A stretch of DNA of 64,000 bases, from the NCBI GenBank assembly GCA_903831595.1, contig CAIKXY010000004.1, positions 7,152-71,151 of the forward strand. The letters are read 5' to 3'. The translations under genes and the position numbers were made by a program. Below are positions 42,114 to 63,277 of this stretch, piece after piece. Source of the stretch: an uncultured bacterium. Its GTDB lineage: Bacteria > Patescibacteriota > Minisyncoccia > Phycocordibacterales > GWA1-40-21. Numbering within the stretch: the stretch's first letter is position 1; each line of letters opens with the position of its first letter. A model generated the notes under the pieces. The model searched no databases. It saw only the letters and a list, made by a program, of their open reading frames with translations, and was not told where the DNA came from.

Positions 42114-43526
42114 CTATATGGATTCAACTGCCTTTTTTATCCTATTTATAGATTCATTTTTACCTAAAACAAATAAAAGAGTAAATGGATCGGGTGATTT
42201 TTCCTTGCCTGACAAAGCAACTCTTAAAGGCCAGAGCACGTTCCCCTTCCCTTTCTCGTCCGCAAATTTCATGAGTTTTTCTTTTAATTTTTCTAAATCA
42301 AAATCTTTATCAGAAATTTTATTTAAAATATCAGAAATTAAAGATAAATTTTCTTTTGCCTGTTCTATTGTTCCCCCTTTTTTCCAAACAATCATTTCTT
42401 TTGAAATAACCGGCATTTCAAAATAATATTGTATATCTCCATCCACCACCATTTTATCTATATCTGAAAAAATATTTATTCTTTCAACTACTAAATCAGA
42501 AATCTTATTAATAATTTTTTCATCCTGAAATTCCTTTGGAAATCTATTTTTAATTTCAGTAATAATCCTCTCTTTTGGAAATTTCTTTATATATTCTTTG
42601 TTAAACCAAAGCAACTTTTCCATGTTAAAAATTGCGCCTGCTTTTTGCACTTTTGAAATATTAAATAACTTAATTAATTCATCAATGCTAAAAATTTCTT
42701 GCTCTGTTCCTGAATTCCACCCAACCAAAGATAAAAAATTTGAAAAAGCTTCTGGAATATATCCCATTCTTTCATAATATTTTACAGATGTCATTTCACC
42801 ATGTTTTCTTTTTGAAAGTTTAGCCCTATCTTCAGCAAGTATTAATGGTAGATGTGCATAAATAGGTATTGGAGCCCCAATAGCTTCTTGGATAAGAATG
42901 TGCCTGGGTGTATTTGATATATGGTCTTCGCCACGAATTATATGAGTCACACCCATTTCAAAATCATCAATAACAACTACTAAATGGAAAATTGGTTCAT
43001 CAAAACTTTTTGCTATCACAAAATCTCCAAGATCTGTTGTGTCAAATTCTATTTCCCCTCTTATAAGATCTTTAAATTTGACTTTTTTATTTGGATTTTT
43101 AAATCTTATTACTTCATTTCGCAAATTTATTACTTGATCCATACCGCCTTTTCTTTCTTTATTTAGATCAATAATTTCTTTTGAAATATATGCCTTTCCT
43201 TCTGCAATAAGTTTTTCTATATATTTTTTATATATACTTCCTCTTTCAGACTGGTGATAAAGTTCATCATACGAAAACCCTAACCATTTCATTCCACTTA
43301 AAATATCATCTTCGTATTCCTTTTTTGATCTTTCTTTATCAGTATCCTCTATTCTTAATATTAATTTACCTTTATGTTGCTTAGCAAAAATATAATTATA
43401 AAGCGCAACCCTTGCACTTCCAACGTGAAAAAGACCAGTAGGACTTGGTGCAAATCTAACAACAATATTTTCTCCTATTAAATTATTTTTCATGTTGTAA
43501 ACCAATTTTAATAATTTCTCGTGCAA
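42114..43526 (-). CDS. gltX: glutamate--tRNA ligase
   Basis: HIGH motif (PSPTGLFHVG) and KMSKS motif (KLSKRK). The start may be an internal ATG near 43493 (MKNNLIGENIVVRF...), which would reduce the overlap with murG. Confidence 0.88.
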   Translation of the reverse strand: MHEKLLKLVYNMKNNLIGENIVVRFAPSPTGLFHVGSARVALYNYIFAKQHKGKLILRIEDTDKERSKKEYEDDILSGMKWLGFSYDELYHQSERGSIYKKYIEKLIAEGKAYISKEIIDLNKERKGGMDQVINLRNEVIRFKNPNKKVKFKDLIRGEIEFDTTDLGDFVIAKSFDEPIFHLVVVIDDFEMGVTHIIRGEDHISNTPRHILIQEAIGAPIPIYAHLPLILAEDRAKLSKRKHGEMTSVKYYERMGYIPEAFSNFLSLVGWNSGTEQEIFSIDELIKLFNISKVQKAGAIFNMEKLLWFNKEYIKKFPKERIITEIKNRFPKEFQDEKIINKISDLVVERINIFSDIDKMVVDGDIQYYFEMPVISKEMIVWKKGGTIEQAKENLSLISDILNKISDKDFDLEKLKEKLMKFADEKGKGNVLWPLRVALSGKEKSPDPFTLLFVLGKNESINRIKKAVESI

Positions 43527-44613
43527 TCAAATCTGAAGCATCAGTTTTAATAAAATTTTTAGCTGCTTCGCTCATTTTTTGTGATATTTTTTTGTCATCA
43601 ATTATTCTTATAATTTCTGATAACAAGATATTAGGAGAAAGATTAGACTCCTCAATGACAACTGCGCCACCGGATCGGGCGTAATTGTAAGCATTTTGAC
43701 GCTGGTGATCACCATTTGTTTCTGTAATTGGAATGATAATACTTGGAACACCCCAAGTAGCTATTTCAAAAATCGCGGAGCCAGCACGTGAAATGATAAG
43801 GTTTGATGCACCCGCTGTCATACTCATATTTAAATTATCTAAATAATCAAAAGTCCTGTATCTATTTTTATATTGGTTGTTTGTCAAAATCACATCTGCG
43901 GTAGCATTTACTTCCAGAATATTATCCTTACCAGTCTGGTGCAACACATAATATTTTTCTACAAGACTATTTAAAATACTTAGTATCTTTTCATTAATAA
44001 TTTTTGCTCCAAGAGACCCGCCTAAAATTAGCACTGCTGGAATATTTTCATCCAGCTTTAAATATTGTCTAGCGTCATCTTTTGTAGGAATCATCTTTAT
44101 ATTATTTCTAACAGGGTTTCCAGTAACTGCTACCTTCATTTTGTCAAAAAACTGGCTTGCTTCAGAATAAGAAACGGCAATCCTCTTTGCAAATTTCCCA
44201 GCCCAAAGATTGGTTCTACCTGGTACACTATCAGACTCATGAATTATCACAGGTATTCTCAATAATTTAGCGGCTACTAATACTGGGAAACTTGAATAAG
44301 CACCTTTACTAAAAATTACGTCAGGGTAAATGTTAAAAACCTTGAAGGTCGCACCAATTATCCCAAAAAATGTTTTAAATAAATCAAAAAAATTTTGTAA
44401 AGAAAAATATGTCCTCATTTTACCTGCAGAAATATTTATATATTCAATATTATTTTCAAGCAACATGTCTACATCATGGGGCGAATCTGACATATAATAA
44501 AGCTTAATAGGAAGAAGCTTTTCTTCTTTTACTATTTGATTAATTTTTTCTGCAACTGCAATAAGTGGATAAAAATGCCCACCTGTTCCACCACCTGTCA
44601 ATAATATTTTCAT
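43483..44613 (-). CDS. murG: undecaprenyldiphospho-muramoylpentapeptide beta-N-acetylglucosaminyltransferase
   Basis: Starts MKILLTGGGTGGHFYPLIAV. GT28 N- and C-domains. Confidence 0.9.
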   Translation of the reverse strand: MKILLTGGGTGGHFYPLIAVAEKINQIVKEEKLLPIKLYYMSDSPHDVDMLLENNIEYINISAGKMRTYFSLQNFFDLFKTFFGIIGATFKVFNIYPDVIFSKGAYSSFPVLVAAKLLRIPVIIHESDSVPGRTNLWAGKFAKRIAVSYSEASQFFDKMKVAVTGNPVRNNIKMIPTKDDARQYLKLDENIPAVLILGGSLGAKIINEKILSILNSLVEKYYVLHQTGKDNILEVNATADVILTNNQYKNRYRTFDYLDNLNMSMTAGASNLIISRAGSAIFEIATWGVPSIIIPITETNGDHQRQNAYNYARSGGAVVIEESNLSPNILLSEIIRIIDDKKISQKMSEAAKNFIKTDASDLIAREIIKIGLQHEK

Positions 44614-44622
44614 AATAAAATT

Positions 44623-45738
44623 TTAAGCTTTAAATACTTTACTAAACTTAGACACGTTCAATACTATTCCCATTTCAAGTAAAACCAAAAGCATTGCTGT
44701 ACCACCTTGACTAAAAAATGCTAGAGGTAAACCCGAAAAAGGTATAATACCAAGAACTGAAGCCATATTTGTAAAAGACTGCAGTACTGTAAGTATAACA
44801 ATTCCAACCACCAAAAGTCCACCAAAAATATCGGGTGATCTGATTGCAATTCTAAAACCCCGAAAGCAAAAAAATAAGAATATAATAATAATGGCGACAC
44901 ATGCAACGAAGCCACCCTCTTCAGCAAGAACTGCAAAAATAGTGTCACTTATAGATTCTGGTAAGAATTTATACTTTTGTACACTTTGGCCAAGTCCTTT
45001 TCCAAAAAACTGGCCAGAACCGACAGCAATTAATGATTGTTGAACTTGATAACCAGATGTTTGAGAATTTGCCCCAGGATTTATAAAAGTTTCAATTCTT
45101 GACATAACATATGGTCGTGTAAATGCAAGAAAAGCAATAACTGCGACTCCAAGTGCACCGAGTATCAAAACATGTTTTACTTTCCCCCCTGCCACAAGAA
45201 ACATAGTGGTACAAGTAGCAGCAATAATTAAGAATGAATCAGTATCGGGCTGGCTTAATAAAATTAAACCGGAAATTGCGATAAAAACCAATAATGGAAT
45301 AAAACCAAACTTTAATGTAGAAACTTTTTCTTTTACTGAAGAGAGCCACGCTGACCAATAAATAATAAAACCAAGATTTAAAATCGTAACTGGCTGAAAA
45401 GAAAAACCAAAAACAGAAATCCATCGTTTTGCAAATGAGTTAAGATTTGTACCAATATGTGGCACAAAGACAAGTGCTGTTAAAATAATAGACCCAATAA
45501 AAATTACTAGTGCGTATTTTTTGTAAATTCTATAATCAATTTTTGAAAAAACAAAACACGCAAGTAAACCGAAAACTATCCCAAAAAATAACTGTTTTAA
45601 TGCAACAGATGTAAATTGCACACTATCTTTCGCTAAAATTCCCATTGAGGCTGATATAAAAATTACAAAACCAAAAATCAAAAGGGCTATCACGATACCC
45701 AAAAATACTTTATCAATATTTTTTTTAGTTCCTGTCAT
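44623..45738 (-). CDS. ftsW: FtsW/RodA/SpoVE (SEDS) family peptidoglycan glycosyltransferase
   Basis: About 10 TM helices and conserved SEDS motifs (GSGQFFGKGLG). Confidence 0.85.
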   Translation of the reverse strand: MTGTKKNIDKVFLGIVIALLIFGFVIFISASMGILAKDSVQFTSVALKQLFFGIVFGLLACFVFSKIDYRIYKKYALVIFIGSIILTALVFVPHIGTNLNSFAKRWISVFGFSFQPVTILNLGFIIYWSAWLSSVKEKVSTLKFGFIPLLVFIAISGLILLSQPDTDSFLIIAATCTTMFLVAGGKVKHVLILGALGVAVIAFLAFTRPYVMSRIETFINPGANSQTSGYQVQQSLIAVGSGQFFGKGLGQSVQKYKFLPESISDTIFAVLAEEGGFVACVAIIIIFLFFCFRGFRIAIRSPDIFGGLLVVGIVILTVLQSFTNMASVLGIIPFSGLPLAFFSQGGTAMLLVLLEMGIVLNVSKFSKVFKA

Positions 45739-45739
45739 C

Positions 45740-46813
45740 TTAAATTTTAATCAAAGCCAAAATTACTCCAAAAATTGCGCAAACAATACTCACAATCCAA
45801 TACCTCATTGTAACTTTATATGCTGGCCAACCAACTGCTTCAAAATGATGGTGAACGGGTGCTACAAGAAAAACTTTTTTACCATGCCTAAATTTCTTGG
45901 AAATAACCTGAACAATTACAGACAACGACGTAATAACTAATGGTAAGGCTATTACAGGCAATACCGCAATTCCCTTTCCTTCACCCATAGAATCGGTCAT
46001 AAAAGCAACAATAGAAAGTGTTATTGCAAGTGCCATACTTCCAGTTTCAGACATGTAAAATCTAGCTGGTGAAATATTAAACCACAAGAAGGCCAAAATT
46101 GACCCGACAACGACCGCACAGAAAGCCGCAAGGTTAATTTGATTTTGAAAGAAAGCGATTCCTGCATATGCAGCAAAAATTGCAGCAAAAACACCGCCAG
46201 CAAGTCCATCTATTCCATCAATAACTCCCCCAGAATAAATAAATAAAGTCACTAAAACAAAAATAGGAATAAATAATATCCCAAAATTAATTCCTCCCAA
46301 AAATGGAATACTAATTGTGTTAACGTCCAATTTAAAATAAAACCAGAGTGCAATTAAAAAAGAAATTATGCTTACAAAAAACAATCTTTTTTTAAGTGAA
46401 AGACCACCAGCATAATTTCCACCTGCCCCCTTTATTTCTAAAATATCATCTATCAAACCGACTAATGCGCCTAAAATAAGAACACATAGAGGAATCCATG
46501 TTTGATCTCTGCTTAAAAAATCTAGTTTTATAAATGTTCCATCAAAAATTTTTGCAAGTAGCCAAAATGCTGCTGTGGTTATAAAAGCTGAAGCCCAAAT
46601 GACAATACCTCCCATTCTCGGTGTACTGACTTCCCTATCGGCATGCAAACTATTAAAAATAGGTGTTCCTCCTCCATCAATAGAGACAGTTTTAACCTTC
46701 TTCTTCCACATTTTATATTTATAAAGATATTTTGTAAGTAATGGAGTACCAAGCATCCCAATAATGAAAGCTATAACTGAAGGTAATATCACTTTGATTA
46801 AATTTATTGTCAT
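45740..46813 (-). CDS. mraY: phospho-N-acetylmuramoyl-pentapeptide-transferase
   Basis: Motifs DDILEIKG...GLIDD and VIDGIDGLAGG, plus HHHFE. Confidence 0.92.
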   Translation of the reverse strand: MTINLIKVILPSVIAFIIGMLGTPLLTKYLYKYKMWKKKVKTVSIDGGGTPIFNSLHADREVSTPRMGGIVIWASAFITTAAFWLLAKIFDGTFIKLDFLSRDQTWIPLCVLILGALVGLIDDILEIKGAGGNYAGGLSLKKRLFFVSIISFLIALWFYFKLDVNTISIPFLGGINFGILFIPIFVLVTLFIYSGGVIDGIDGLAGGVFAAIFAAYAGIAFFQNQINLAAFCAVVVGSILAFLWFNISPARFYMSETGSMALAITLSIVAFMTDSMGEGKGIAVLPVIALPLVITSLSVIVQVISKKFRHGKKVFLVAPVHHHFEAVGWPAYKVTMRYWIVSIVCAIFGVILALIKI

Positions 46814-46902: not shown

Positions 46903-47262
46903 TTATGGGGTTATCTTTTTCAATAGCAATTGGAACAAAGCGTAAAAATCTTTTTGGACTTCGGCTGAATCTTTTGCTTTTGTAAAAATCTGCCAAGATT
47001 CTAGAATTTGTTTATCATTTAAACTTCTCACAGCATTCTCTAGCTGTAATCTATCATCAAATGAAACTTCCTTTGAACCACCCAAAACTTTATCCATAAA
47101 AAGCTGAGTAAAATTTAATATGTCAGCATTTACCTTTTGATTAGAAGCCTTTGTTTTCAAATCTCTTACTGACATTTTGGCAGAAATAAACATCCAAGCA
47201 AAAAACACATTGCTTATCAATAAAACTATTACTATTATCCATAAAACTTTTGTTTTTTGCAT
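46903..47262 (-). CDS. small bitopic membrane protein (possible FtsL/DivIC-like division protein; hypothetical)
   Basis: 119 aa with a single N-terminal TM helix. Located between the giant surface gene and mraY. Confidence 0.3.
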   Translation of the reverse strand: MQKTKVLWIIVIVLLISNVFFAWMFISAKMSVRDLKTKASNQKVNADILNFTQLFMDKVLGGSKEVSFDDRLQLENAVRSLNDKQILESWQIFTKAKDSAEVQKDFYALFQLLLKKITP

Positions 47263-47271
47263 TTTGATGTG

Positions 47272-50200
47272 CTAATTATATAATAAATTTTTTCTTTTAT
47301 CACCCTTACCACGACGAATAGTAAAAATGGTGCCAATATAAACCAACGCTACAAAAATACCTAATAATAAAATGTTTTGTAAGTTAAGTATTTTTGCTAC
47401 AGAAAATATCGCCTTTAATTCAAGATTCATAAATACCCCTTTGCTCTCATCCACCTGGAATGGATCTCCTTTGTAATCTACGTACCCGTCAAGATGTGCT
47501 GTCATATAATATATACCAGCAGGGACAAGGAATGAGTATCTGCCTGTTACATCCGTCGTCTGTGGATTGGTTTGTCTATAATCTTTTGCTGGCCATAATT
47601 CATAATTTTTTGTCTTTGGATTTTGCCAATAAATAGATACTTCAACGTTATTCAAACGAGTTTCTTTTCCATCTGATTGTTTTTCATAAACATACCCCTC
47701 TGGGTCCACCAAAACGACCATGCTTATTTTTTCTGGAGCTTTTGACGCTGCTTTGAAATTGACGACTGTCCTCAATTCATATTGACCAATTGCAAGTGGT
47801 GATGCAACATCTGCTGTCCAAATACCATCGACATTTTCTTTATAATTAAATTTGGTCAAAACAAGATCTGTTTCACTTGTAATTCCTGAGTCATTTGTTT
47901 GAGTACCCTGACTTTCACCAATTATTGTACTTGCGACTGTTGCGACTTGTGAAAGAGTAGATTTCTTTGAAACAGCATTTGATTTGAATATAATATAACC
48001 TTGAATATTTTTTGCTGGTGCTGTTGGTTTTACAATAAGCTTCATTGTCTGGCCTTGGATTGTATTTAGGGTTTGTAATGCCAAACCATCATTTCCGATT
48101 GAAAGTTTTACATTCAAGTCTATCTTTTCATCTTGCGTTCTTGCAAAAACTATACCTGTAGGTATTTTAGCTTTTTGTGTATCAGATAAGCTAGCTATTG
48201 GTAAAGTATTTGAAGATAGTGTAGCTGCTTCCGTAATACCTGGTAATGATATAGGATTTGCATTCAACTTTAATATGGAATTCATATTATTTACTCCAAT
48301 TTTACTCAAAGCCGAACTTACTTCAGGAAACTTAGAAACAATATCCGTGTAATCACTTGGGAGTTTGGTATTAATTAAATCTGTCAAAGAAGAAGGAGTT
48401 ATAATTTTCCACGAATTTAATATTGCAAATGGCGCGACGGAAGGGAGTGTTGTCTTAACTTCAGTAAGTGCAAGTGGTTCTATTTTCTTTGGTGGAAGAA
48501 TTACCGTAAGAATATCAGCAGTTGTACTTGCTATGTTTCCGACAATACTTTGCGTTGTATTTGATATACTATTTATTATAGAAACAGTAGAAAGAGTAAT
48601 TGATTGGGACACTGCTGGTGAAGAAATTCCTTGTGCATCTAGAAATTTAGCATAAACATAATATTTTCCGTCTGGACATGTTGTACTATTTTGACATAAA
48701 TCATAAGTGGTTGTTGTTATATTATTTGCGGAATATGGAATGGTAACAGTATTTGTGAAATCTGGATTATTGGAAAAGATTATTGCAGTTGCACTACCAA
48801 GCTGATCTGTAGAAAATTGCAAAGTTACTTTTCTGTCATCTGTTGTCCATGCTCCACCGTTTATAGATACGGAATATCTTGGAGAGGATGAACCACCTCC
48901 AGATATAGAACTGAGTGATGAGCTTGCAGTTGTATAATTTTTTCTTCCTGATGGTACTGCATATGTCATATGTGTAGCAGAGGATGACGTGTCTTTATTA
49001 CCAAGATAATCCTGACATGCTATATAGACATTCTTAGGTCCTGGAGTCCCAAGAGTAGGTAGTATACAAGACATTTGTATTCCATTATTTACAGAACAAG
49101 ATACTCCAGAGGACATTTGATCATACGATTGCGCTGTATCGGAAACTACAAGACGACAATCTCCTACTTTACTCAAAGTAAATGTGACTAGATTTCCAGT
49201 ATAAATATTTGAATTATCAACAGGACTAATGTTTGAAATTGTAGCTAGTGTTTTGTCTATATTAATTATTCTAGAAACTATTGTTTGAATATTTCCAGCA
49301 TTATCAATAGAAGAATATCTGAAATAATTTGTACCTCCATTTGAAACAACTACTGATGCAACATAGCTAATGCTTGGTGTACAGGTATTAGCGTTATCAA
49401 TACAATAACTGGTAGTTGCAATTCCGGATGTTGTATCAGCTGGATTTAAGGTAATTGTAATATTACTATTTGTCCATGCGCTGTATGTATAAGGTTGGGT
49501 TTGACTTGTCACAGCTGTATCTGTTGTCATTGGTGCAACAGTATCTATCTTTACAATCCTACTGACCGTGGTTTGTATATTGTTAGCATTATCTTCTGAT
49601 GCATAACGGAAATATGAAATACCTTCAAATGGTATAACTACTGGAGCAGAATAATCTGTACCATCAGCTGGAGAGCATGTGTTATTTGTATCAACACAAT
49701 ATCTAGTCCATAAAATTCCAGAACTTGGTGCAGGATCATTTGGTGTCAAAGTAATTGTCTGATTGCCATTTACCCAAATATTATTGTTTGTAAAATTATC
49801 AGATGTATTTGGTGCTGTTTTGTCTACATGTCTATGTCCTGTTATTATTTGTCCTGAATTACCAGCGATATCAACTGGGAAATATTTCAAAACATAATCT
49901 CCTTCTGATGTAATAGTAAACTGCCAGCTTGATGATGCCTCTACATATTGTGATGCAAGACTTGGATTTGTATTATCAGTTGTATAGTAAATTCTGTAAC
50001 AACCAGAACCAACTACTCCATCATCACAGGTGAAAGTAACTGTGCTTGCATTTGCAAAAGTAGATGTTGCAACAGTTACTGTTGGTAATTGATTATCAAA
50101 CTTCAAGTCATTTGAATCTGTATATATACTGGTAGTGTTTCCTGCAAAATCATTTGCTTTATATCTCAGTACAGAATCACCTTCTGTAGAGTACGTAAAT

Positions 50201-53200
50201 GCAAATGATGTACCAGATGTTGCATAATTTGTATCTGGAGTACATGGAGTAGTTGAAGCTAAATATGTACAATAATAAACTTGATTACAACCGGATGTAC
50301 TATCAGTACAACTCAAAGTGACAACAATTGGACTTGTATGCCAATTGTTATCAGCATTAGATGATACTGATGATGGTGCTACTGTATCCCATGTCAAACT
50401 AAATGTAGATGAAGCTAAATTACCTGCATTGTCTGTTGCAAGAAGTTTAATTACATATGTACCATCTGTATTAGCAGAAATTGTTGTGTTTGCTGATGTT
50501 GATGAACCAAAAGTAATTGTCCCTGGTCCAGAAACTTTTGACCATAGATACGATGCTATTCCTGAAGTGAGGTCACTAGAGCTAGCACTTGTTGTAAATG
50601 TAGAGCTTGAAGTCATGTTTGAACCAGCACTTACAACTGGAGATGTCGTGTCCCAAATTAGGTTGAATGTTGATGAAGAAGAGTTACCTACATTATCAGT
50701 CACAAGAAGTTTAATTACATATGTACCATCTGTGTTTGCAGAAATTGTTGTGTTTGCTGATGTTGATGAACCAAAAGTAATTGTCCCTGGTCCAGAAACT
50801 TTTGACCATAGATACGATGCTATTCCTGAAGTTACATCACTTGCAGTGGCCGTTGTTGTAAATGTAGAATTTGCAGTTTTGTTTGCACCGGCATTTACTG
50901 TTGGTGGTACAGTATCAACAGTAAATGTACTAGTGGCTGCATTTGCATTAGATGTTGTATTACTATAAGCATCAGTTGCTCTTACATATATCGTATGACT
51001 TCCATCCGCAAGCGTAGAAGCAGTGCAACTAAATCCTTCCGTAGAAGAATTAAAAGCTCCATCAGCTGCAGTACAGTTTATCCAGCTGCCACTCGTTCCA
51101 TCGATTTGATATTGAACATTCGAAACTATTCCTGGATTTGAAAGTGTCCCTGCATCAGTAGATGTTCCGTAAATAGTTGGCGTAGTATTACTCGTGAAAG
51201 CAGCGACACTACCTAAATTAATTGTTGGTGGAGTAATATCAAAAGTCCAGTTTGTATTTCCGCCACCATCAACACAACCAGTGGTACAAAGAAATGCGGT
51301 AGAACTTAAATTTGTTGAGCTTGCGACGTTTAGATATGATAGATTGGTTGTACCAGCTCCGGTTTGGACAAGATTAAAAGTATTTGCAAGAAAATATGAA
51401 CTAGTTGGTGGCGTAAAGTTTGAAGTCCAACGAGCAACACCTTTTGATATTCTAAATTCATCTAAATGTCCATCTAAATAATAAGGACTTCCTGTATAAT
51501 AACCTTCCCACCCAATACGAAGTGGAGTAGATGGTGTATATATAGTGGCTGTGAAAGTGGTACCTCCAACATTTTGTAACACCCCATTAACAAAGAAATA
51601 TATCTTTCCACCTGTTCTTGAAATAGCAATATGGTACCAAGTATTGGTAGAAAAAGCATAAGATACACCTAGTGTGGTAGCAGAGCTTCCTGTTGTAGTG
51701 TACGCAAATTGAAGATGTGTTCCATCTTGCATATTTACATTAAAAGAAAAATCATTAGCACTCACCTCTTGCCCATAAAATGTTACAAAATGGTAAGAAC
51801 CGCCAGTAGAATTTAATCTAACTCTAAAATCTATAGTAAAATCACCCGACCCTAAATTAAAATCGGAACTTGCTGGAGTACTTATATATTTATTTACTGG
51901 AAAATTTCCCGACGCTCCTCCGAATACACTTGTAGAAGTATCAATAGTGCTACTATAAGATGTAAAAGTGTGAAGACCAGATGAACTATCTGTAAAGGTA
52001 GAGGAATTGTTTGCTCCATCCATATGCAACATTAATTTTGTATAACTATCTATTCCACCTGGAATTGGACTAATACTTAAAAGATTATTGAGAGCACCAT
52101 TTAGTGTAAGGTTATTTGTTATTGTAGTTGTATTTAAAGAATCAAGAAGTAAAGATGTTGCTGCTGATGTTGTTTTGGTCAAATTATTAAAAGAATTTGC
52201 ACCAATAATTGATTGTGCTGTTCCATTCAAATTTACACTTCCACTATTACTTGAAAAGGTACCTCCGGAATTTGTCCAGTTGCCACCAACATTAAGCGTA
52301 CCAGATGGAGCTGTAAATGTTCCAGCAGAAAGTGTTAAATTTCCTGGGATTGTTAAATTACTAGTTCCTACAGTGAATGTCCCTCCGGAACCATTAATAG
52401 TCAAATTATTATAAGACCAGTCTTTGATTGCTCTTGTACTTGTAGTCGCCGTATAAGTCACAGTTGAACTAGTAAGGGTTGGCGTGGCAAGTGCACTACC
52501 ACCAACAGCAGTTTCATCCCCAGTAAGTTTAAGATTTGCACTAACATTAAATACGGTCGGAGAAAATTGATACCCAGCTAAATTCAAAGTTCCACTTCCA
52601 GATACTGTAGTAGTTGCAGAATATTGATTTCCTACAAGTGTAACAGTGTTTGAATCAATAGTTGCAATATCATATGGACCAGGATACGCGACGCCTTCTA
52701 TTGTTCCTGATGTTCCCCATGTGGTACTCGCCTGCCAATTACCATTTGCGACGTCATTAAATGTTGTTGGTGCAACAGAACCTCCGTCATTAATGGTCCA
52801 TCCTTTTGCAACAATTGCTGCACGAGCAGTTGCTGGTGTGCCAGTATAATATTGCGATGAACCACCAGTAAAGGTTACGGGGCTTTTTAATGTTTGTGTA
52901 GACCAACCTTGTAAAATTTTACTATAATTTATCGTTGATAATGTATCCCCAGTAAACATGTTTGACATATTTGTAGAACTTGAAACAACCCAATTACCCA
53001 AATTTTGGTTAAAAGCAGAGTCAAATCCAAACATATAATTCATGGTAGTAACTTTGGCTGTATTCCATCCAGAAATATTTTGATTAAATGCACTGTAGTA
53101 AAACATCTGTGACATGTCAGTAACATTCGAAGTATTCCAATTACCTATTGAAGAACTAGCGGCATTGTTAAAAACACCACCAGCACCAGAAAACATGCCA

Positions 53201-55992
53201 CCCATATTTGTAACATTTGAAACATCCCATGAACCCACATTTTGATTAAATTTGGCATCACCGTTAAACATAGAGTACATGTCAGTAACTTTTGAAGTGT
53301 TCCATTTTGAAACATCATAATTAAATTTAGTACTCATAAACATGTAACGCATACTCGTAACATTACCTGTGTTCCAATTTGAAAGATCTTGATTAAAATT
53401 GCTATCATTTCCAAACATACTGGCCATGCTTGTAGAACTTGCTGTATTCCATCCAGAAATATCCTGATTGAATTTTGACTGGTAAAACATCTGTGACATG
53501 TCAGTAACTTTTGATGTATTCCAATTACCTATTGGTTGATTAAATACAACAGTTTGACCGTTGTTATAAAAAACACCTTGCATATTGGTGACATTGCCTG
53601 TATTCCAAGTGTTAATGTTTTGATTAAAGCTATTAGCTGAATCAAACATGTAGGCTATATTTGTAACATTACTTGTATTCCAACTACCGATTGGTTGGTT
53701 AAATAATTTTGTATATTCAAACATATAACTCATATCTGTGGTACTTGCGGTTACCCAATTATTTATTGTTGATGAGCTAGCGTTATTAAATGCAAGAGCA
53801 CTATCAAACATATGTGCCATATTTATCACTTTACTTGTATTCCATGCGCCTAGGTTTGCATCAAACAAATTAGTGTTTTGAAACATATAACTCATATTTG
53901 TAACATTTCCAGTATTCCATCCGCTTATGTCTTGATTGAATGACCCAGCACTATCAAACATATGTGCCATATTTGTTACATTAGACATATCCCAGCTGTT
54001 GATTGACGGTATTGATGTAATTGAACCAGCCCCATCAAAAGCATAGGACATGTTTGTTGTCCCCGTCATGTCTAATGTGTCAGTAGCTGTAATTGTTAAA
54101 TTTGGAGCACCGTAAAAGTATGCCCCACTATTACCAAGTTTTAATATCCCCCATTGACTGATATTTTTTATTTTTCGGTAATCACCAGTATAATTGAAAC
54201 AAATACTTGTTGGTGTTCCTGTAATACTAATAGTGACTGAAGTTGTGCCTGTATTTCCACCAGTGTATGTGTGCGTAGCAGTACTACTTGTACTATTGTC
54301 TCCCCAATCTACAACATATGTTCCAGTTATAGGTAAAACAATAACGCTTGAAGCACTCCCCGCTTTTGTAGTATCCCACGTAGAAATAAAAGGATTGGAT
54401 GGATCCACAACATAATCCACATCTATATTCCCAATAACCTTGAGGTCAAACATGTCTGTGGGAGTTTGTAGGTTTTGTAGAAGTATTCTGTATTTACCAT
54501 TATGATTAATATTATCAAAATTTGGATTTACATTATCATCAACTAAAGCAAGTTGTGGTCCTTCTGTTTGATCACCATTTGCATCTGTGTAAACTGGGTA
54601 AACTTCTATACTTGCTGATGTAGTTGTACCAGATGGTCTTGCATAAATAGTAATGTCATTTTTGTTGGATAAAATAGAATTGAAAGTTGTACGTATATAT
54701 TGTCCATCATTGATGGTAGCGTAGTTTCCATCTTTAGTTGCTACTGTGTCATAGATATCTGCAAGAATACTTTGGTCTGTATCAAGCTGGAAAGCTTTTG
54801 ATATGAAAATAATTTCAAATGTTTGTGTTGAAAGGTGTGGAACTGTCCATTCTACATAGTCGAGCCATCCATCTTTGTTTAGGTCATATGCCTTAAAAAC
54901 AACATTTTGGTCGCCGTTGTTCACCCATTTTATTTTTATCTTATCTTCTTGGCCTACTTTATATATTTTGGGAATGTTTGTAAATGCTAGAACATCTGTT
55001 ATTTGTGTTTCTGGGGTATCTGTAGCAGAGATTGTAACAATCTTTCCTGTATCTGTATTTGCTTCTGTAATAGTTGGTGCTGGAGTCTCAAATGTGACGT
55101 CTACTGTTGTTGATGCAGTAGATGTTCCTGTAGAAGTAGCAGTTGATTGATCAGAGCTTGTGGATGTTGTTGATGAAGATTGTGAATTGTCAGTTGAGGT
55201 GGATGTAGTTGTAGTTGATTGATCTATGGTTGTTGATGCAGAGGTGGTTGATTGATCTTCGGTCGTTGACGCAGTTGTAGTTGATTCATCTTCTGTTGTT
55301 GAAGCGGTAGATGAAGATTGTGAATTGTCAGTTGAGGTGGATTGTACTGATGCAGAATTATCTGGAGTTAGAGTAGAAGAATTATCTGTAGGTGTTGGTG
55401 TTGGTGTTTGATCTGGTGTTGGTGAAACTACTGGTGCAACATCGACAACAGTTGTCTCTGGTTCTGGTGCTGGAGCTACAGCATCTTCAACTGTGGCAAA
55501 CATATTTGATATTGTGTTTGCAATATTATGGAATATTTTTCCCAAAAAACTTAATTTTTTATTTGCTGCAGCATTTTGTTGTTTTATTTTTTCTGCAAAT
55601 TCAAGTGTAGAAGTAGAGTGTATTCTTTTTGCAGCTAATGCTGAAAGTTTCTTTCTGTCTGCATTTGTGAGTTTGGAAATTTTTATTTTAGAAATATTTT
55701 TTAGGGTTGAAGTAGAGACTGTGACTTTTGTTGCAACTTTTGGTATCTCTACTAGGTGTGAGTCTTTATTAATTTGATTTACTGCAATTTTCTTTATCCA
55801 TTTGATTGGCTGGCCTGGGGCTGATGGAATTTGAGTGATAGAAAAGCCTTTCACTATACTGCTAGTAACTTGTGAATTGTTTTGTAAGCCAGAAATTTTA
55901 TAGACACCAAAGACAACAAGAAAAATAGCAATAAAAAAACCAAGAATAGTGCCTGATTTCTTGATTATTTTTAATAAACTGTCTTTAGTCAT
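47272..55992 (-). CDS. giant cell-surface protein (2,906 aa): N-terminal TM/signal, S/T-rich linker, DUF285/BspA-type repeats, beta-helix-like region, LamG/concanavalin-like domain, repeated Ig/CHB_HEX-C-like domains, C-terminal CarboxypepD_reg-like domain and TM anchor
   Basis: Continuous ORF. An FISTW...VDWGDNS...QWG leader is followed by about 14 repeats of the type WNTSNVTNMSYMF (aa 540-1075). LamG-like region KLMLHMDGANNSS...LDEFRISKGVARW. Duplicated Ig-like units. C-terminal hydrophobic helix followed by RRGKGDKRK. Confidence 0.8.
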   Translation of the reverse strand: MTKDSLLKIIKKSGTILGFFIAIFLVVFGVYKISGLQNNSQVTSSIVKGFSITQIPSAPGQPIKWIKKIAVNQINKDSHLVEIPKVATKVTVSTSTLKNISKIKISKLTNADRKKLSALAAKRIHSTSTLEFAEKIKQQNAAANKKLSFLGKIFHNIANTISNMFATVEDAVAPAPEPETTVVDVAPVVSPTPDQTPTPTPTDNSSTLTPDNSASVQSTSTDNSQSSSTASTTEDESTTTASTTEDQSTTSASTTIDQSTTTTSTSTDNSQSSSTTSTSSDQSTATSTGTSTASTTVDVTFETPAPTITEANTDTGKIVTISATDTPETQITDVLAFTNIPKIYKVGQEDKIKIKWVNNGDQNVVFKAYDLNKDGWLDYVEWTVPHLSTQTFEIIFISKAFQLDTDQSILADIYDTVATKDGNYATINDGQYIRTTFNSILSNKNDITIYARPSGTTTSASIEVYPVYTDANGDQTEGPQLALVDDNVNPNFDNINHNGKYRILLQNLQTPTDMFDLKVIGNIDVDYVVDPSNPFISTWDTTKAGSASSVIVLPITGTYVVDWGDNSTSSTATHTYTGGNTGTTSVTISITGTPTSICFNYTGDYRKIKNISQWGILKLGNSGAYFYGAPNLTITATDTLDMTGTTNMSYAFDGAGSITSIPSINSWDMSNVTNMAHMFDSAGSFNQDISGWNTGNVTNMSYMFQNTNLFDANLGAWNTSKVINMAHMFDSALAFNNASSSTINNWVTASTTDMSYMFEYTKLFNQPIGSWNTSNVTNIAYMFDSANSFNQNINTWNTGNVTNMQGVFYNNGQTVVFNQPIGNWNTSKVTDMSQMFYQSKFNQDISGWNTASSTSMASMFGNDSNFNQDLSNWNTGNVTSMRYMFMSTKFNYDVSKWNTSKVTDMYSMFNGDAKFNQNVGSWDVSNVTNMGGMFSGAGGVFNNAASSSIGNWNTSNVTDMSQMFYYSAFNQNISGWNTAKVTTMNYMFGFDSAFNQNLGNWVVSSSTNMSNMFTGDTLSTINYSKILQGWSTQTLKSPVTFTGGSSQYYTGTPATARAAIVAKGWTINDGGSVAPTTFNDVANGNWQASTTWGTSGTIEGVAYPGPYDIATIDSNTVTLVGNQYSATTTVSGSGTLNLAGYQFSPTVFNVSANLKLTGDETAVGGSALATPTLTSSTVTYTATTSTRAIKDWSYNNLTINGSGGTFTVGTSNLTIPGNLTLSAGTFTAPSGTLNVGGNWTNSGGTFSSNSGSVNLNGTAQSIIGANSFNNLTKTTSAATSLLLDSLNTTTITNNLTLNGALNNLLSISPIPGGIDSYTKLMLHMDGANNSSTFTDSSSGLHTFTSYSSTIDTSTSVFGGASGNFPVNKYISTPASSDFNLGSGDFTIDFRVRLNSTGGSYHFVTFYGQEVSANDFSFNVNMQDGTHLQFAYTTTGSSATTLGVSYAFSTNTWYHIAISRTGGKIYFFVNGVLQNVGGTTFTATIYTPSTPLRIGWEGYYTGSPYYLDGHLDEFRISKGVARWTSNFTPPTSSYFLANTFNLVQTGAGTTNLSYLNVASSTNLSSTAFLCTTGCVDGGGNTNWTFDITPPTINLGSVAAFTSNTTPTIYGTSTDAGTLSNPGIVSNVQYQIDGTSGSWINCTAADGAFNSSTEGFSCTASTLADGSHTIYVRATDAYSNTTSNANAATSTFTVDTVPPTVNAGANKTANSTFTTTATASDVTSGIASYLWSKVSGPGTITFGSSTSANTTISANTDGTYVIKLLVTDNVGNSSSSTFNLIWDTTSPVVSAGSNMTSSSTFTTSASSSDLTSGIASYLWSKVSGPGTITFGSSTSANTTISANTDGTYVIKLLATDNAGNLASSTFSLTWDTVAPSSVSSNADNNWHTSPIVVTLSCTDSTSGCNQVYYCTYLASTTPCTPDTNYATSGTSFAFTYSTEGDSVLRYKANDFAGNTTSIYTDSNDLKFDNQLPTVTVATSTFANASTVTFTCDDGVVGSGCYRIYYTTDNTNPSLASQYVEASSSWQFTITSEGDYVLKYFPVDIAGNSGQIITGHRHVDKTAPNTSDNFTNNNIWVNGNQTITLTPNDPAPSSGILWTRYCVDTNNTCSPADGTDYSAPVVIPFEGISYFRYASEDNANNIQTTVSRIVKIDTVAPMTTDTAVTSQTQPYTYSAWTNSNITITLNPADTTSGIATTSYCIDNANTCTPSISYVASVVVSNGGTNYFRYSSIDNAGNIQTIVSRIINIDKTLATISNISPVDNSNIYTGNLVTFTLSKVGDCRLVVSDTAQSYDQMSSGVSCSVNNGIQMSCILPTLGTPGPKNVYIACQDYLGNKDTSSSATHMTYAVPSGRKNYTTASSSLSSISGGGSSSPRYSVSINGGAWTTDDRKVTLQFSTDQLGSATAIIFSNNPDFTNTVTIPYSANNITTTTYDLCQNSTTCPDGKYYVYAKFLDAQGISSPAVSQSITLSTVSIINSISNTTQSIVGNIASTTADILTVILPPKKIEPLALTEVKTTLPSVAPFAILNSWKIITPSSLTDLINTKLPSDYTDIVSKFPEVSSALSKIGVNNMNSILKLNANPISLPGITEAATLSSNTLPIASLSDTQKAKIPTGIVFARTQDEKIDLNVKLSIGNDGLALQTLNTIQGQTMKLIVKPTAPAKNIQGYIIFKSNAVSKKSTLSQVATVASTIIGESQGTQTNDSGITSETDLVLTKFNYKENVDGIWTADVASPLAIGQYELRTVVNFKAASKAPEKISMVVLVDPEGYVYEKQSDGKETRLNNVEVSIYWQNPKTKNYELWPAKDYRQTNPQTTDVTGRYSFLVPAGIYYMTAHLDGYVDYKGDPFQVDESKGVFMNLELKAIFSVAKILNLQNILLLGIFVALVYIGTIFTIRRGKGDKRKNLLYN
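50420..50947. repeat. tandem duplication (two ~264-bp units, about 85-90 percent identical with a near-identical ~140-bp core) inside the giant surface gene
   Basis: DNA units begin TTACCTGCATTGTCTGTTGCAAGAAG and TTACCTACATTATCAGTCACAAGAAG. They encode the duplicated Ig-like segment SYLWSKVSGPGTITFGSSTSANTTISANTDGTYVIKLL. Confidence 0.8.
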
Positions 55993-56118
55993 TTATTTTT
56001 TGTGAAAAACTAGATTAAAAATACCTGTGTCATATTTAGGCTTTAATTTTATCATTATAATAAGGAAAATCCAAGGGTTTTTATCAACAAAACCCCGCTT
56101 GAAAGCCAGACTTCCAAG

Positions 56119-60891: not shown

Positions 60892-61887
60892 TTAATAAAT
60901 TTCCACTCCCACTTTCTCTCTTACATCCTTCATTTTCTTTTCTGCATTTGCTGATGCTTTTTTGGCACCATTTTTAAGAATTTCAAAAACTGCATCCAAA
61001 TCTTTAGCTAATTTTTCTCTTTTTTCTCGCATTGGTTTTATAAAGGCAGACAAATCTTTTATGAGTAACTCTTTTGCTTCTTTATAACCCATTCCTCCTT
61101 TTTGGTATTTTTCTCTCAAAGTTTTTTGTTTATCTGTGTCCAAAAGTAATTTATGAATTGCAAAAATAATTGACTCATCTGGATTTTTTGATTCAGCCAC
61201 ACCTTTTGAATCTGTTGGAATTTTCATCACCAGTTTTTTTATTTCTTCATCAGTAGCAAAAAGTGGAATTTCATTGTCATAACTTTTACTCATTTTTCTT
61301 CCATCTATTCCAGGAACAGTTTCTACATTAGAAAGAATCAGTGGTTCTGGTAATCTAAAAGTCTCTCCAAAAATTCTATTAAACTTTTGCGCTGTGTCTC
61401 TTGCATATTCCACGTGCTGTTTTTGATCTTGCCCCACAGGAACGATATCTGCATCCTGCATCAAAATATCTGAAGCCATAAGCATTGGATAATCAAAAAG
61501 CCCAACATTTATTTCTTTATTTTTTGCTTCAGCATCTTTGAAAGCATGTGCACGCATCAGATAAGGCATCGTTGTAAGACAATTAAAAATCCAAGTGAGT
61601 TCTGTCACTTGTGGAATATCGGATTGTTTAAAAAGTGTAATTTTCTTTGGATCAAGTCCTATCGCTAAATAATTTAATGCGACATCAATAATCCCTTGCT
61701 TAAGCTCTTCTTTATTTTGGACTGTTGTCATTGCATGATAATCGGCAATAAAAATATAGCTTTCATATTTATCTTGGAGGTCTACCATTTGTTTCATCGC
61801 TCCAAAGTAATTTCCAATATGAACTCTACCTGTTGGTTTAACTCCTGATAAAAGGATTTTTTTATTATTTATTTGATTTATTTTCAT
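60892..61887 (-). CDS. trpS: tryptophan--tRNA ligase
   Basis: HIGH-class motif (SGVKPTGRVHIGNYFGA) and KMSKS. Confidence 0.9.
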   Translation of the reverse strand: MKINQINNKKILLSGVKPTGRVHIGNYFGAMKQMVDLQDKYESYIFIADYHAMTTVQNKEELKQGIIDVALNYLAIGLDPKKITLFKQSDIPQVTELTWIFNCLTTMPYLMRAHAFKDAEAKNKEINVGLFDYPMLMASDILMQDADIVPVGQDQKQHVEYARDTAQKFNRIFGETFRLPEPLILSNVETVPGIDGRKMSKSYDNEIPLFATDEEIKKLVMKIPTDSKGVAESKNPDESIIFAIHKLLLDTDKQKTLREKYQKGGMGYKEAKELLIKDLSAFIKPMREKREKLAKDLDAVFEILKNGAKKASANAEKKMKDVREKVGVEIY

Positions 61888-62110: not shown

Positions 62111-63109
62111 ATGTCACAGGTTATTTTGTCAGGTATACGAGCAACCGGAAGACTACATTTTGGTAATTTTCTCGGCGCAGTTCAAAACTTTGTAAAGTTT
62201 CAAGAGCAAATCGATGCTACCTGCATGTATTTTGTGGCTGATTGGCACACATTAACGACCCTTAAGGATCCGGAGGTATTGCGTTCAAACTTGATTGAGA
62301 TGATTAAGGATTATATTGCAGCTGGGCTCGATCCAAATAAGTCAATAATTTATACCCAATCAAGCATTCCAGAGATTGCTGAGCTAGCTTTATATTTGAG
62401 TATGTTTCAGCCAATTAATGAGCTGAACCTTATTCCTACTTATAAAGAATTGGTTCGCAAAAATCCAGATCAGGTGAGTCTTGGACTCCTGTCATATCCA
62501 ATCCTTATGGCAGCAGATATCCTTGGTCCACGGGCAACAATGATCCCCGTTGGAGAGGATCAAATACCAAATGTGGAATTGGCCCGATCACTTGCTCAAC
62601 GTTTTAATCGTCGTTTTGGAGAAATATTTGTAATACCAGAGATGATGGAGCAAATGATAAAAGTTCCTGGTCTTGATGGTAACAAAATGGGTAAATCAGA
62701 TAATAATTCCATTGAGATTGGTGCACCAATGAATATTATTGGTAAGCTGTACATGAAAAAAGGTATTACCGATCCAGAAAGAAAACACTTGATGGATTTG
62801 GGTGATCCTTATAACCGTTGTAAATCAGTTTACGGAATTCATGAGCTCATTACTCAAGATGAAAAAGATCTCCGCGTCATTGCAAACAAATGCATGAAAG
62901 CTGAAATTAGCTGCGTTGAATGCAAAAAGATATTAGTCGAAAGTATCGCAAAGATACTTATACCTTTTCAAGAAAAAAGGAAAGAATTAACTGATAAGGA
63001 TGACTATGTGAGTGAAATACTTTACGAAGGTGGAAAACGAGCTCGTTCAATAATTGCAAAAACTGTAGCGGTTGTTCGAGATAAAATGGGGATCGTTCTC
63101 TACAGTTAG
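62111..63109 (+). CDS. tryptophan--tRNA ligase paralog (TrpRS-II) with a C-x23-C-x6-C-x2-C putative Fe-S motif
   Basis: SGIRATGRLHFGNFLGA and KMGKS motifs. C-terminal Cys motif NRC...(23 aa)...CMKAEISCVECKK. RBS GGAGG. Third-position GC is visibly higher than in neighbouring genes. Confidence 0.85.
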   Translation: MSQVILSGIRATGRLHFGNFLGAVQNFVKFQEQIDATCMYFVADWHTLTTLKDPEVLRSNLIEMIKDYIAAGLDPNKSIIYTQSSIPEIAELALYLSMFQPINELNLIPTYKELVRKNPDQVSLGLLSYPILMAADILGPRATMIPVGEDQIPNVELARSLAQRFNRRFGEIFVIPEMMEQMIKVPGLDGNKMGKSDNNSIEIGAPMNIIGKLYMKKGITDPERKHLMDLGDPYNRCKSVYGIHELITQDEKDLRVIANKCMKAEISCVECKKILVESIAKILIPFQEKRKELTDKDDYVSEILYEGGKRARSIIAKTVAVVRDKMGIVLYS

Positions 63110-63203: not shown

Positions 63204-63277
63204 TGGCGGACGCGGTGGGACTCGAACCCACGGTACTGGTTTTGGAGACCAGAAGTTTACCACTAACCAACGCGTCC
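63204..63277 (-). tRNA. tRNA-Trp (anticodon CCA)
   Basis: Reverse complement GGACGCGTTGGTTAGTGGTAAACTTCTGGTCTCCAAAACCAGTACCGTGGGTTCGAGTCCCACCGCGTCCGCCA. Anticodon loop CTCCAAA, a 7-bp acceptor stem, and an encoded 3' CCA. Confidence 0.85.

Follow-up and report, generated by a model that had tools for sequence, protein, structure and literature searches.

The 64-kb stretch of DNA analysed here (hereafter the window; contig CAIKXY010000004.1 of assembly GCA_903831595.1, from an uncultured bacterium of the Patescibacteriota) carries a giant gene on its minus strand (47272..55992), whose product of 2,906 amino acids (aa) is a known kind of thing, namely one of the large, modular surface proteins of ultra-small bacteria. 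What we regard as newly seen with respect to that kind is a scaffold with conserved ends, an obligate small partner gene and the exchange of a LamG cassette, none of which was found in Pfam, NCBIfam or a limited literature search. The alignments place the protein in a large family without a name in Pfam or NCBIfam, which is defined by a domain near the N-terminus (hereafter N-domain); the family-defining parts are this N-domain and a conserved C-terminal module (C-module), not DUF285 or LamG. The reading that we favour, and consider a probable one, is that of a membrane-anchored and mostly extracellular giant scaffold displaying variable binding modules, which would most likely serve in binding to partner cells.

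The open reading frame (ORF), taken from the ORF list and its translation, extends over 8,721 nucleotides (nt) from ATG to stop, i.e., 2,906 codons plus the stop codon and 13.6% of the window. This agrees with the original prediction, made from the letters alone, of a single 8.7-kb ORF of 2,906 aa covering about 14% of the window. A protein encoded on a 172-kb contig (P0001) is identical to it, and full-length orthologs with about 69% identity (P0002-P0004) have an architecture in common with the whole protein. Therefore, the giant ORF is real, rather than a chance ORF or an assembly chimera. All coordinates given below refer to the minus strand of the window unless indicated otherwise.

Conserved ends and a variable middle

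A search of a large protein collection retrieved 130 homologous proteins, most of them 1,600-4,900 aa long, of which 125 could be mapped onto the query. The named ones are mostly from the Candidate Phyla Radiation (CPR; Paceibacterota, Staskawiczbacteria), and the names carried by the relatives of the protein (Paceibacterota, Nomurabacteria, Staskawiczbacteria) are in agreement with the CPR origin suspected previously. Coverage of the query by the 125 homologs is uneven, with about 99 of them aligned over aa ~300-540, about 63 over aa 50-300, about 48 over aa 2500-2860, and 9-30 over the middle. Indeed, pairwise maps show many homologs that match the N- and C-terminal parts only, their middle being wholly different.

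The N-domain (aa 296-535; 54388..55107) is aligned in about 99 of the 125 top homologs. Across 92 giant proteins it is 38-82% identical. Its position is always some hundreds of residues in from the N-terminus, within the first ~900 residues and behind an N-terminal hydrophobic segment, as is also the case in the window protein. It corresponds to no Pfam or NCBIfam model. When an N-domain profile was searched against 1.84 billion cluster representatives (clusters at 50% identity), 2,425 clusters were retrieved at E<=1e-3 and 1,152 at E<=1e-30, always with the domain near the N-terminus.

The C-module (aa 2490-2860; 47413..48525) is aligned in 42-48 of the 125 homologs with 31-68% identity. The window protein has this module followed by a transmembrane (TM) segment and a basic tail, a combination present in just ~40% of the N-domain proteins retrieved, and the C-module therefore defines a subfamily. 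Of 92 family members, 91 have a hydrophobic segment within the first 200 aa, and 37 of 42 have one at the C-terminus, followed by a short K/R-rich tail; across the family members scanned (92 and 42 proteins) no hydrophobic segments other than these terminal ones were observed. Likewise, a hydropathy scan of the window protein shows only two, at aa ~14-33 and ~2868-2892. This terminal pair, the basic tail, the paired cysteines of the Ig-like domains and the exclusive presence of domains of extracellular type are all consistent with the surface topology proposed in the original prediction.

Some giant proteins bearing the labels Pacearchaeota or Woesearchaeota (P0112, P0115 and P0120) also contain the N-domain, with about 38-40% identity. 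One of them, P0112 (GCA_016204145.1, JACQLK010000022.1; L022:4001-12001), is probably truly archaeal, as its contig carries a TFIIB gene; the gene downstream of it encodes 350 aa and is not the small partner. These matches suggest that the N-domain may be common to bacteria of the CPR and archaea of the DPANN group.

The small partner gene and the exchange of internal modules

The partner gene (46903..47262), recognized by its translation and by synteny, begins 9 nt after the stop codon of the giant gene and encodes a single-pass membrane protein of 119 aa. This protein has an N-terminal TM segment and the invariant residues R71, L74, E75, N76 and W90, the first four of which are enclosed in the motif F-[DE]-D-R-L-x-L-E-N; it had no match in Pfam, NCBIfam or PDB-profile searches. 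The pairing of the two genes can be seen from either side. Starting from the giant proteins, a gene of 94-127 aa is located directly downstream in 7/7 loci checked, the seventh of which (P0012, with a 116-aa neighbour) was counted by position, homology being established for the other six. Starting from the small protein, a pattern search of 185,579 species genomes recovered 15 loci, and in all of them the C-module is encoded immediately upstream on the same strand. The small protein family comprises at least 343 clusters at 90% identity, none of them named; the best 120 clusters listed are ~96-144 aa in length and have no Pfam domains or meaningful names.

In contrast to this constant pairing, the neighbourhoods of the homologous giant genes (pheT, UvrA/GroES, TspO) are unlike that of the window (dacA, mraY-ftsW-murG). 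Since the pair is kept while the other neighbours differ, its position in the division and cell wall (dcw) cluster is incidental, and the two-gene module formed by the giant gene and the small membrane-protein gene is, on the evidence of synteny, the conserved unit. We also considered whether the giant gene is connected in function with the dcw genes (mraY-ftsW-murG downstream and the DD-carboxypeptidase upstream) and discarded the idea, as its orthologs and relatives are found in unrelated neighbourhoods.

The dcw genes of the window (43483-46813) are in the order mraY, ftsW, murG, without murD between mraY and ftsW. The giant pair sits between a DD-carboxypeptidase (S11) gene and mraY, likewise in same-species assemblies (L019-L021), and the same small protein followed by MraY is found in GCA_903954215.1 and GCA_903938855.1. 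The 69%-identical ortholog is located elsewhere, after pheT (L001). Regarding transcription, a consensus scan and pattern match revealed a terminator-like hairpin (56074..56096) after the upstream DD-carboxypeptidase gene, with 1 site upstream of the giant gene versus 0.2 expected, and no such hairpin between the giant and partner genes. This hairpin just upstream suggests that the giant gene may start its own transcription unit.

Two further observations concern the two-gene module. Two of the loci (L017 and L018) come from one metagenome-assembled genome (CAYXRV01), and P0074 and P0076, each with a longest contig of 92,686 nt, apparently also belong to a single genome, so that the module of giant and small genes appears to occur in several copies within a genome. 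In addition, P0011 (L104:637-9078), with an N-domain 82% identical to that of the window and both DUF285 and LamG kept, has a divergent C-terminus; it retains the downstream small partner gene, at 26% identity.

The LamG (concanavalin-like) domain (aa 1301-1545; 51358..52092), an exchanged hypervariable cassette by the comparisons that follow, was assigned to Laminin_G_3 (PF13385; 71.7 bits against a cut-off of 27.6) when the segment was scanned alone, while the scan of the whole protein gave just a weak Laminin_G_2 match in this region. Compared domain by domain with the ortholog P0003, identity reaches 78-93% in the Ig-like stalk, 79% in the solenoid-like region and 71% in the N-domain, versus ~49% in the DUF285 repeats and ~30% in LamG. 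The boundaries are sharp in a sliding window, where identity is 73-100% up to aa ~1300, 20-40% between aa 1301 and 1540, and 90-100% from aa 1541. In contrast, the nearest LamG found in the metagenome collection of the Joint Genome Institute (JGI) is 81% identical and belongs to a more distant homolog (L023), in which the flanking Big_13/OmpL47-type domains are 65-81% identical and the upstream architecture is different. Together, the LamG of L023, as similar as its flanks or more so, and that of P0003, dissimilar between nearly identical flanks, indicate that LamG is a cassette exchanged between relatives and not a gradually diverged domain.

Diversity-generating retroelements (DGRs) are another potential source of such hypervariability. 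Within the 64 kb, no repeat forms a template/variable pair with the LamG region, and no reverse transcriptase was found among the subset of window ORFs scanned. A DGR origin of the LamG hypervariability was ruled out for lack of a template-like repeat in the window. A related kind of variation affects DUF285: P0002 and P0003 are ~96-100% identical over ~2,100 common residues, with an extra DUF285 block of ~660 aa in one of them. The alignment makes it probable that this block is exchanged, or gained and lost, between near-identical variants.

Domain make-up of the giant protein

The original prediction had read into the sequence an N-terminal TM or signal sequence, a Ser/Thr-rich linker, a FISTW...VDWGDNS leader followed by about 14 DUF285 repeats, a beta-helix-like stretch, a LamG/concanavalin-like domain, duplicated Ig-like and CHB_HEX_C-like domains, a carboxypeptidase-regulatory-like beta-sandwich, and a C-terminal TM anchor with a basic tail. 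Nearly all of these calls have been recovered by family models, composition or hydropathy, as described below from the N- to the C-terminus. The beta-helix stretch alone is without a family-model match, and the carboxypeptidase-regulatory-like assignment stands for the fold and fails for the sequence.

Behind a Lys-rich N-terminus, the first hydrophobic segment, GTILGFFIAIFLVVFGVYKI (aa 14-33; 55894..55953), recognized by hydropathy, could be either a signal-anchor or a signal peptide. It may stay uncleaved in the membrane, as a stretch of ~20 residues exceeds the usual length in cleaved signal peptides, and as it has a conserved region and a linker behind it. This membrane-proximal conserved region (aa 34-170; 55483..55893), aligned in about 63 of the 125 homologs, consists of a strand-like stretch and then helix-like sequence, which is also seen in the N-terminal alignment, and has no Pfam match. 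The Pro/Thr/Ser-rich linker that follows (aa 171-295; 55108..55482) is 63% S/T/P, with 34% Thr and 30% Ser between aa 201 and 300, and is partly encoded by imperfect DNA repeats of 33 and 66-72 nt (55135-55342); it possibly spans the wall.

The N-domain was modelled by AlphaFold2 (AF2) as two beta-sandwiches, with a mean predicted local distance difference test score (pLDDT) of 83.8. Foldseek searches against PDB and viral structures returned a generic beta-sandwich, with weak matches of the carbohydrate-binding module (CBM) or galactose-binding type only. The domain contains a near-canonical EF-hand-like loop (D370-L-N-K-D-G-W-L-D-Y-V-E381), in which positions 1 and 9 are invariant and Gly-6 and Glu-12 nearly invariant across members, and sub-threshold EF-hand Pfam matches were obtained in 22 of 30 members. 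The loop probably binds Ca2+.

The DUF285/BspA-type (PARCEL) block (aa 536-1080; 52753..54387) is composed of a leader, repeats and a C-terminal cap, and scores well above the thresholds of both relevant models (PF03382, 377.1 bits against 25; TIGR02167, 147.6 bits against 30, in 10 stretches). The FISTW...VDWGDNS leader is located at aa ~536-566. By motif count there are exactly 14 canonical repeats of the NVTNMxxMF type (aa 661-1030; 52903..54012), with cores between aa 671 and 1013 and a spacing of 24-30 aa, which are also visible in the DNA as the repeat families D1 and D2. A PDB sequence search retrieved no solved DUF285 relative. The leader VLPITGTYVVDWGDNS includes an LPITG (aa 553-557; window 54334-54348) that fits the sortase consensus; it lies ~2,300 residues before the C-terminus, with no TM segment and basic tail behind it, and is probably merely part of the conserved DUF285 leader. 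The G/T/N-rich repeat region that follows (aa 1081-1300; 52093..52752), the stretch predicted as a beta-helix, has homologous stretches in 48 family matches. Its periodicity is weak (7, 13, 20 and 26 residues, z 2-3.5), and neither aa ~1081-1300 nor seven homologous segments match Pfam or NCBIfam; the region is possibly a beta-solenoid.

Beyond LamG, the protein continues as a series of Ig-like domains. The first of them (aa 1585-1696; 50905..51240), of the Big_13/Big_7/Y_Y_Y type according to family models, barely exceeds the cut-off for Y_Y_Y in the whole protein (26.8 bits against 26.6), with Big_13, Big_7 and Big_3_3 remaining sub-threshold. It is followed by a tandem pair of K319L-like PKD domains (aa 1697-1784 and 1785-1872; 50377..50904), which match PF22352 in 2 stretches (68.3 bits against 27) and KIAA0319L (PDB 6nz0_Z) by sequence (E=1.6e-6). 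Their DNA copies (50384-50634 and 50648-50898), 264 nt apart, are 85% identical, and the pair, which corresponds to the duplicated Ig-like domains of the original prediction, is a recent duplication. Four domains of the OmpL47/CHB_HEX_C type come next (aa 1873-2255; 49228..50376), each with a Cys pair and with D-x-x-x-P linkers between them; they belong to NF047446 (118.8 bits against 40, in 6 stretches) and to CHB_HEX_C_1 (PF13290; 30.8 bits against 22). A further beta-rich region (aa 2256-2489; 48526..49227) is 73-90% identical to the orthologs and, with no significant family match, is presumably Ig-like as well.

The C-module comprises a Pro-rich linker, a helical subdomain, beta-sandwiches and a transthyretin-like domain at aa ~2761-2860 (AF2 mean pLDDT 72, with 80-94 in the transthyretin-like part). 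At the sequence level, it does not reach the cut-off for CarboxypepD_reg (PF13620; 19.5 bits against 32.3), whereas at the structural level the transthyretin-like fold was recognized by Foldseek (5aq0_B, probability 1.0, target-normalised TM-score [TMt] 0.80, root-mean-square deviation 4.0; also 1qmu, 2nsm and 3mn8). The C-module search further returned pilins of Gram-positive bacteria and SlaB, an S-layer stalk (8qox_B).

The protein ends in a TM helix (aa 2868-2892) and the basic tail RRGKGDKRKNLLYN (aa 2893-2906; both together 47275..47391), detected by hydropathy and by AF2, in which the helix at positions 382-408 of the C-module is the terminal TM segment. No LPXTG was found before the C-terminal TM helix, the sole LPxTG being the LPITG at aa 553, and sortase anchoring was consequently ruled out. 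Type IV pilin-like processing was also ruled out, as the G|F-x-x-x-E motif is missing.

Some features of the window stand apart from this architecture. The GC skew of the giant gene (48001-56000) ranges from +0.04 to +0.18, with -0.06 at 52-54 kb, compared with -0.16 to -0.23 in its minus-strand neighbours, and its GC content is 34-37% versus 29-33% in the neighbours; the skew is probably due to the Thr/Ser/Asn-rich composition rather than to a foreign origin. A second large ORF, on the plus strand (2842-6996; 1,384 aa), has as its sole match a C-terminal GNAT acetyltransferase (aa ~1268-1323). Finally, two divergent genes for class-I tRNA synthetases of the Trp/Tyr type (60892-61887, minus, and 62111-63109, plus), both PF00579, are adjoined by a tRNA-Trp gene (63204-63277).

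Possible functions and relation to known systems

An adhesin or host-attachment role, as put forward in the original prediction, is plausible, and a mechanism can be outlined. The giant protein would be exported by the Sec pathway and held in the membrane by its C-terminal TM helix, with the basic tail in the cytoplasm as the positive-inside rule implies, and perhaps also by the N-terminal segment. Given the lack of an LPXTG-like motif before the C-terminal helix, anchoring is probably by the helix itself. Fixing the protein at the envelope and assembling it there would be the task of the conserved modules at both ends, together with the 119-aa membrane protein encoded alongside. The Ig-like domains (~8) would act as a stalk or spacers, and DUF285 and LamG would be the ligand-binding parts, diversified by cassette exchange and by the gain and loss of blocks, with partner-cell surfaces or glycans as their most likely targets. 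Attachment candidates of this kind, i.e., large surface proteins with lectin and fibronectin-type domains, are described for CPR genomes in passages of several papers (PMC4508563, PMC5220378, PMC13059738), and another paper reports that the DUF285 protein MbovP0145 of Mycoplasma bovis is secreted and interacts with host beta-actin (PMC8707762).

Several observations weigh against this reading. The function of the partner, and its contact with the giant protein, are inferred from synteny alone. The C-terminus of P0011 shows no clear TM helix, and the small partner, which P0011 keeps, may not depend on a canonical C-terminal TM segment. The difference between P0002 and P0003 could be an assembly artefact in repeats. 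Finally, the strong conservation of the N-domain (38-82% between very divergent lineages) fits the binding of a conserved self-structure, and a structural coat is equally compatible with it.

The protein could also be an envelope coat or S-layer-like protein, attached by its conserved ends to the membrane and wall of its own cell. It would then form a protective or spacing layer, and its modules would vary so as to evade phages or predators, not for the sake of binding a host. In favour of this, the C-module is similar to SlaB, a membrane-anchored S-layer stalk (8qox_B, probability 1.0), the very conserved CBM-like N-domain with its EF-hand-like loop fits the binding of a conserved wall polymer of the same cell, both ends have hydrophobic segments and Pro/Thr/Ser-rich linkers, and selection by phages would likewise yield cassette exchange. 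Such a coat is a serious rival, which we nevertheless consider unlikely, as the family-model scans revealed no S-layer, S-layer homology (SLH) or lattice-type domain, the fold matches are on the whole weak (query-normalised TM-score [TMq] ~0.2), DUF285, LamG and PKD are typical of binding modules, and some genomes have more than one member of the family (L017/L018 and P0074/P0076). It is also conceivable that the protein is a tethered lectin array that scavenges environmental polysaccharides or detritus instead of attaching cells to each other, given that LamG, the CBM-like N-domain and the CHB_HEX_C-type domains are frequent in glycan-active proteins. However, the same scans found no catalytic glycoside hydrolase or lyase domain and there are no sugar-uptake genes among the neighbours, which makes carbohydrate capture a rather improbable function.

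Some of the distant matches are RHS or PKD proteins, and the protein is large and repetitive with one hypervariable internal domain, features that would also fit a protein that is released or delivers a toxin, in the manner of polymorphic toxins, RHS proteins or RTX adhesins, or else a DGR-diversified target. In contrast, the RHS similarity spans 4-15% of the query and occurs in proteins with PKD-type Pfam domains, the C-terminus is a TM anchor and not a toxin, and there is neither an RTX motif (GGxGxD) nor an LPXTG near the C-terminus. As the window moreover has no template-repeat/variable-repeat pair, and no reverse transcriptase among the ORFs scanned, this explanation is largely refuted and hardly credible. 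The display scaffold with exchangeable binding modules has to be placed in relation to systems already described.

The DUF285 block relates the protein to the BspA-like/DUF285 proteins of Mycoplasma, Listeria and others, with which it has in common the models PF03382/TIGR02167, the ~25-aa NVTxMxxMF repeats, the FISTW...VDWGD leader and an extracellular location. DUF285 proteins of mycoplasmas are lipoproteins of ~400 aa. In the window, unlike in these, DUF285 is one exchangeable block in a scaffold of 2,906 aa; the score for the Mbov_0838 family (NF045896) is below its cut-off (210.2 bits against 500) and the lipobox [LVI][AST][GA]C was not found. Similarly, the Leptospira OmpL47 equivalog (NF047441) is not reached (33.5 bits against 250), the domain type alone being held in common.

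Another parallel is provided by the large surface proteins of the CPR, which, according to the passages devoted to them (Nelson and Stegen, 2015, PMC4508563; Castelle et al., 2017, PMC5220378; Absconditicoccaceae, PMC13059738), are also very large and membrane-targeted, carry lectin, concanavalin, Ig and fibronectin-type domains, and have been proposed to mediate contact with partner cells. In a limited search, these passages list domain types and do not describe the N-domain, the C-module, the small partner or LamG exchange. The giant proteins of Omnitrophota (Archaeovorins, Dockerin-type) are likewise giant, mostly extracellular products of ultra-small bacteria with domains related to attachment and carbohydrates. 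In contrast to the window protein, with its two terminal hydrophobic segments and no SecA or dockerin match, the full-length ones are all multi-TM and most have SecA DEAD domains, and >30,000 aa are typical of the largest (bioRxiv 10.1101/2023.11.21.568195).

In terms of layout, Gram-positive adhesins and pilins of the MSCRAMM/CnaB type are similar in combining an export signal, binding modules, an Ig/CnaB/transthyretin-like stalk and a hydrophobic C-terminus with a basic tail. The sortase-dependent adhesins differ from the window protein, in which no LPXTG precedes the C-terminal TM helix and a small membrane protein, instead of a sortase, is the conserved partner. In the SlaB of Sulfolobales, too, beta-sandwich domains precede a membrane anchor at the C-terminus, and SlaB gave the fold match 8qox_B mentioned above. 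However, this match is partial within the C-module and of low TM-score, there is no sequence similarity and no SlaA-like partner, and the window comes from a bacterium.

To our knowledge, the means by which CPR bacteria recognize partner cells and keep hold of them are largely obscure beyond the type IV pili of a few cultured Saccharibacteria. In this context, we tentatively propose, as an idea that goes further than the favoured reading and that we regard as doubtful, that the N-domain, the C-module and the ~120-aa partner form a display and anchoring system not described so far, analogous to sortase/LPXTG or SLH systems. It would be widespread in Paceibacteria-type CPR, with the N-domain also in DPANN, and LamG, DUF285 and DUF2341 cassettes, shuffled into the system by recombination, would set the range of partners or hosts.

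If the favoured reading is wrong, what has been found is one more large multidomain surface protein of the CPR. If it holds, the N-domain, the C-module and the partner gene make up a scaffold that is defined by sequence and open to a search across thousands of genomes, and the LamG domain and the DUF285 block, exchanged between close relatives, would be natural candidates for the determinants of specificity.

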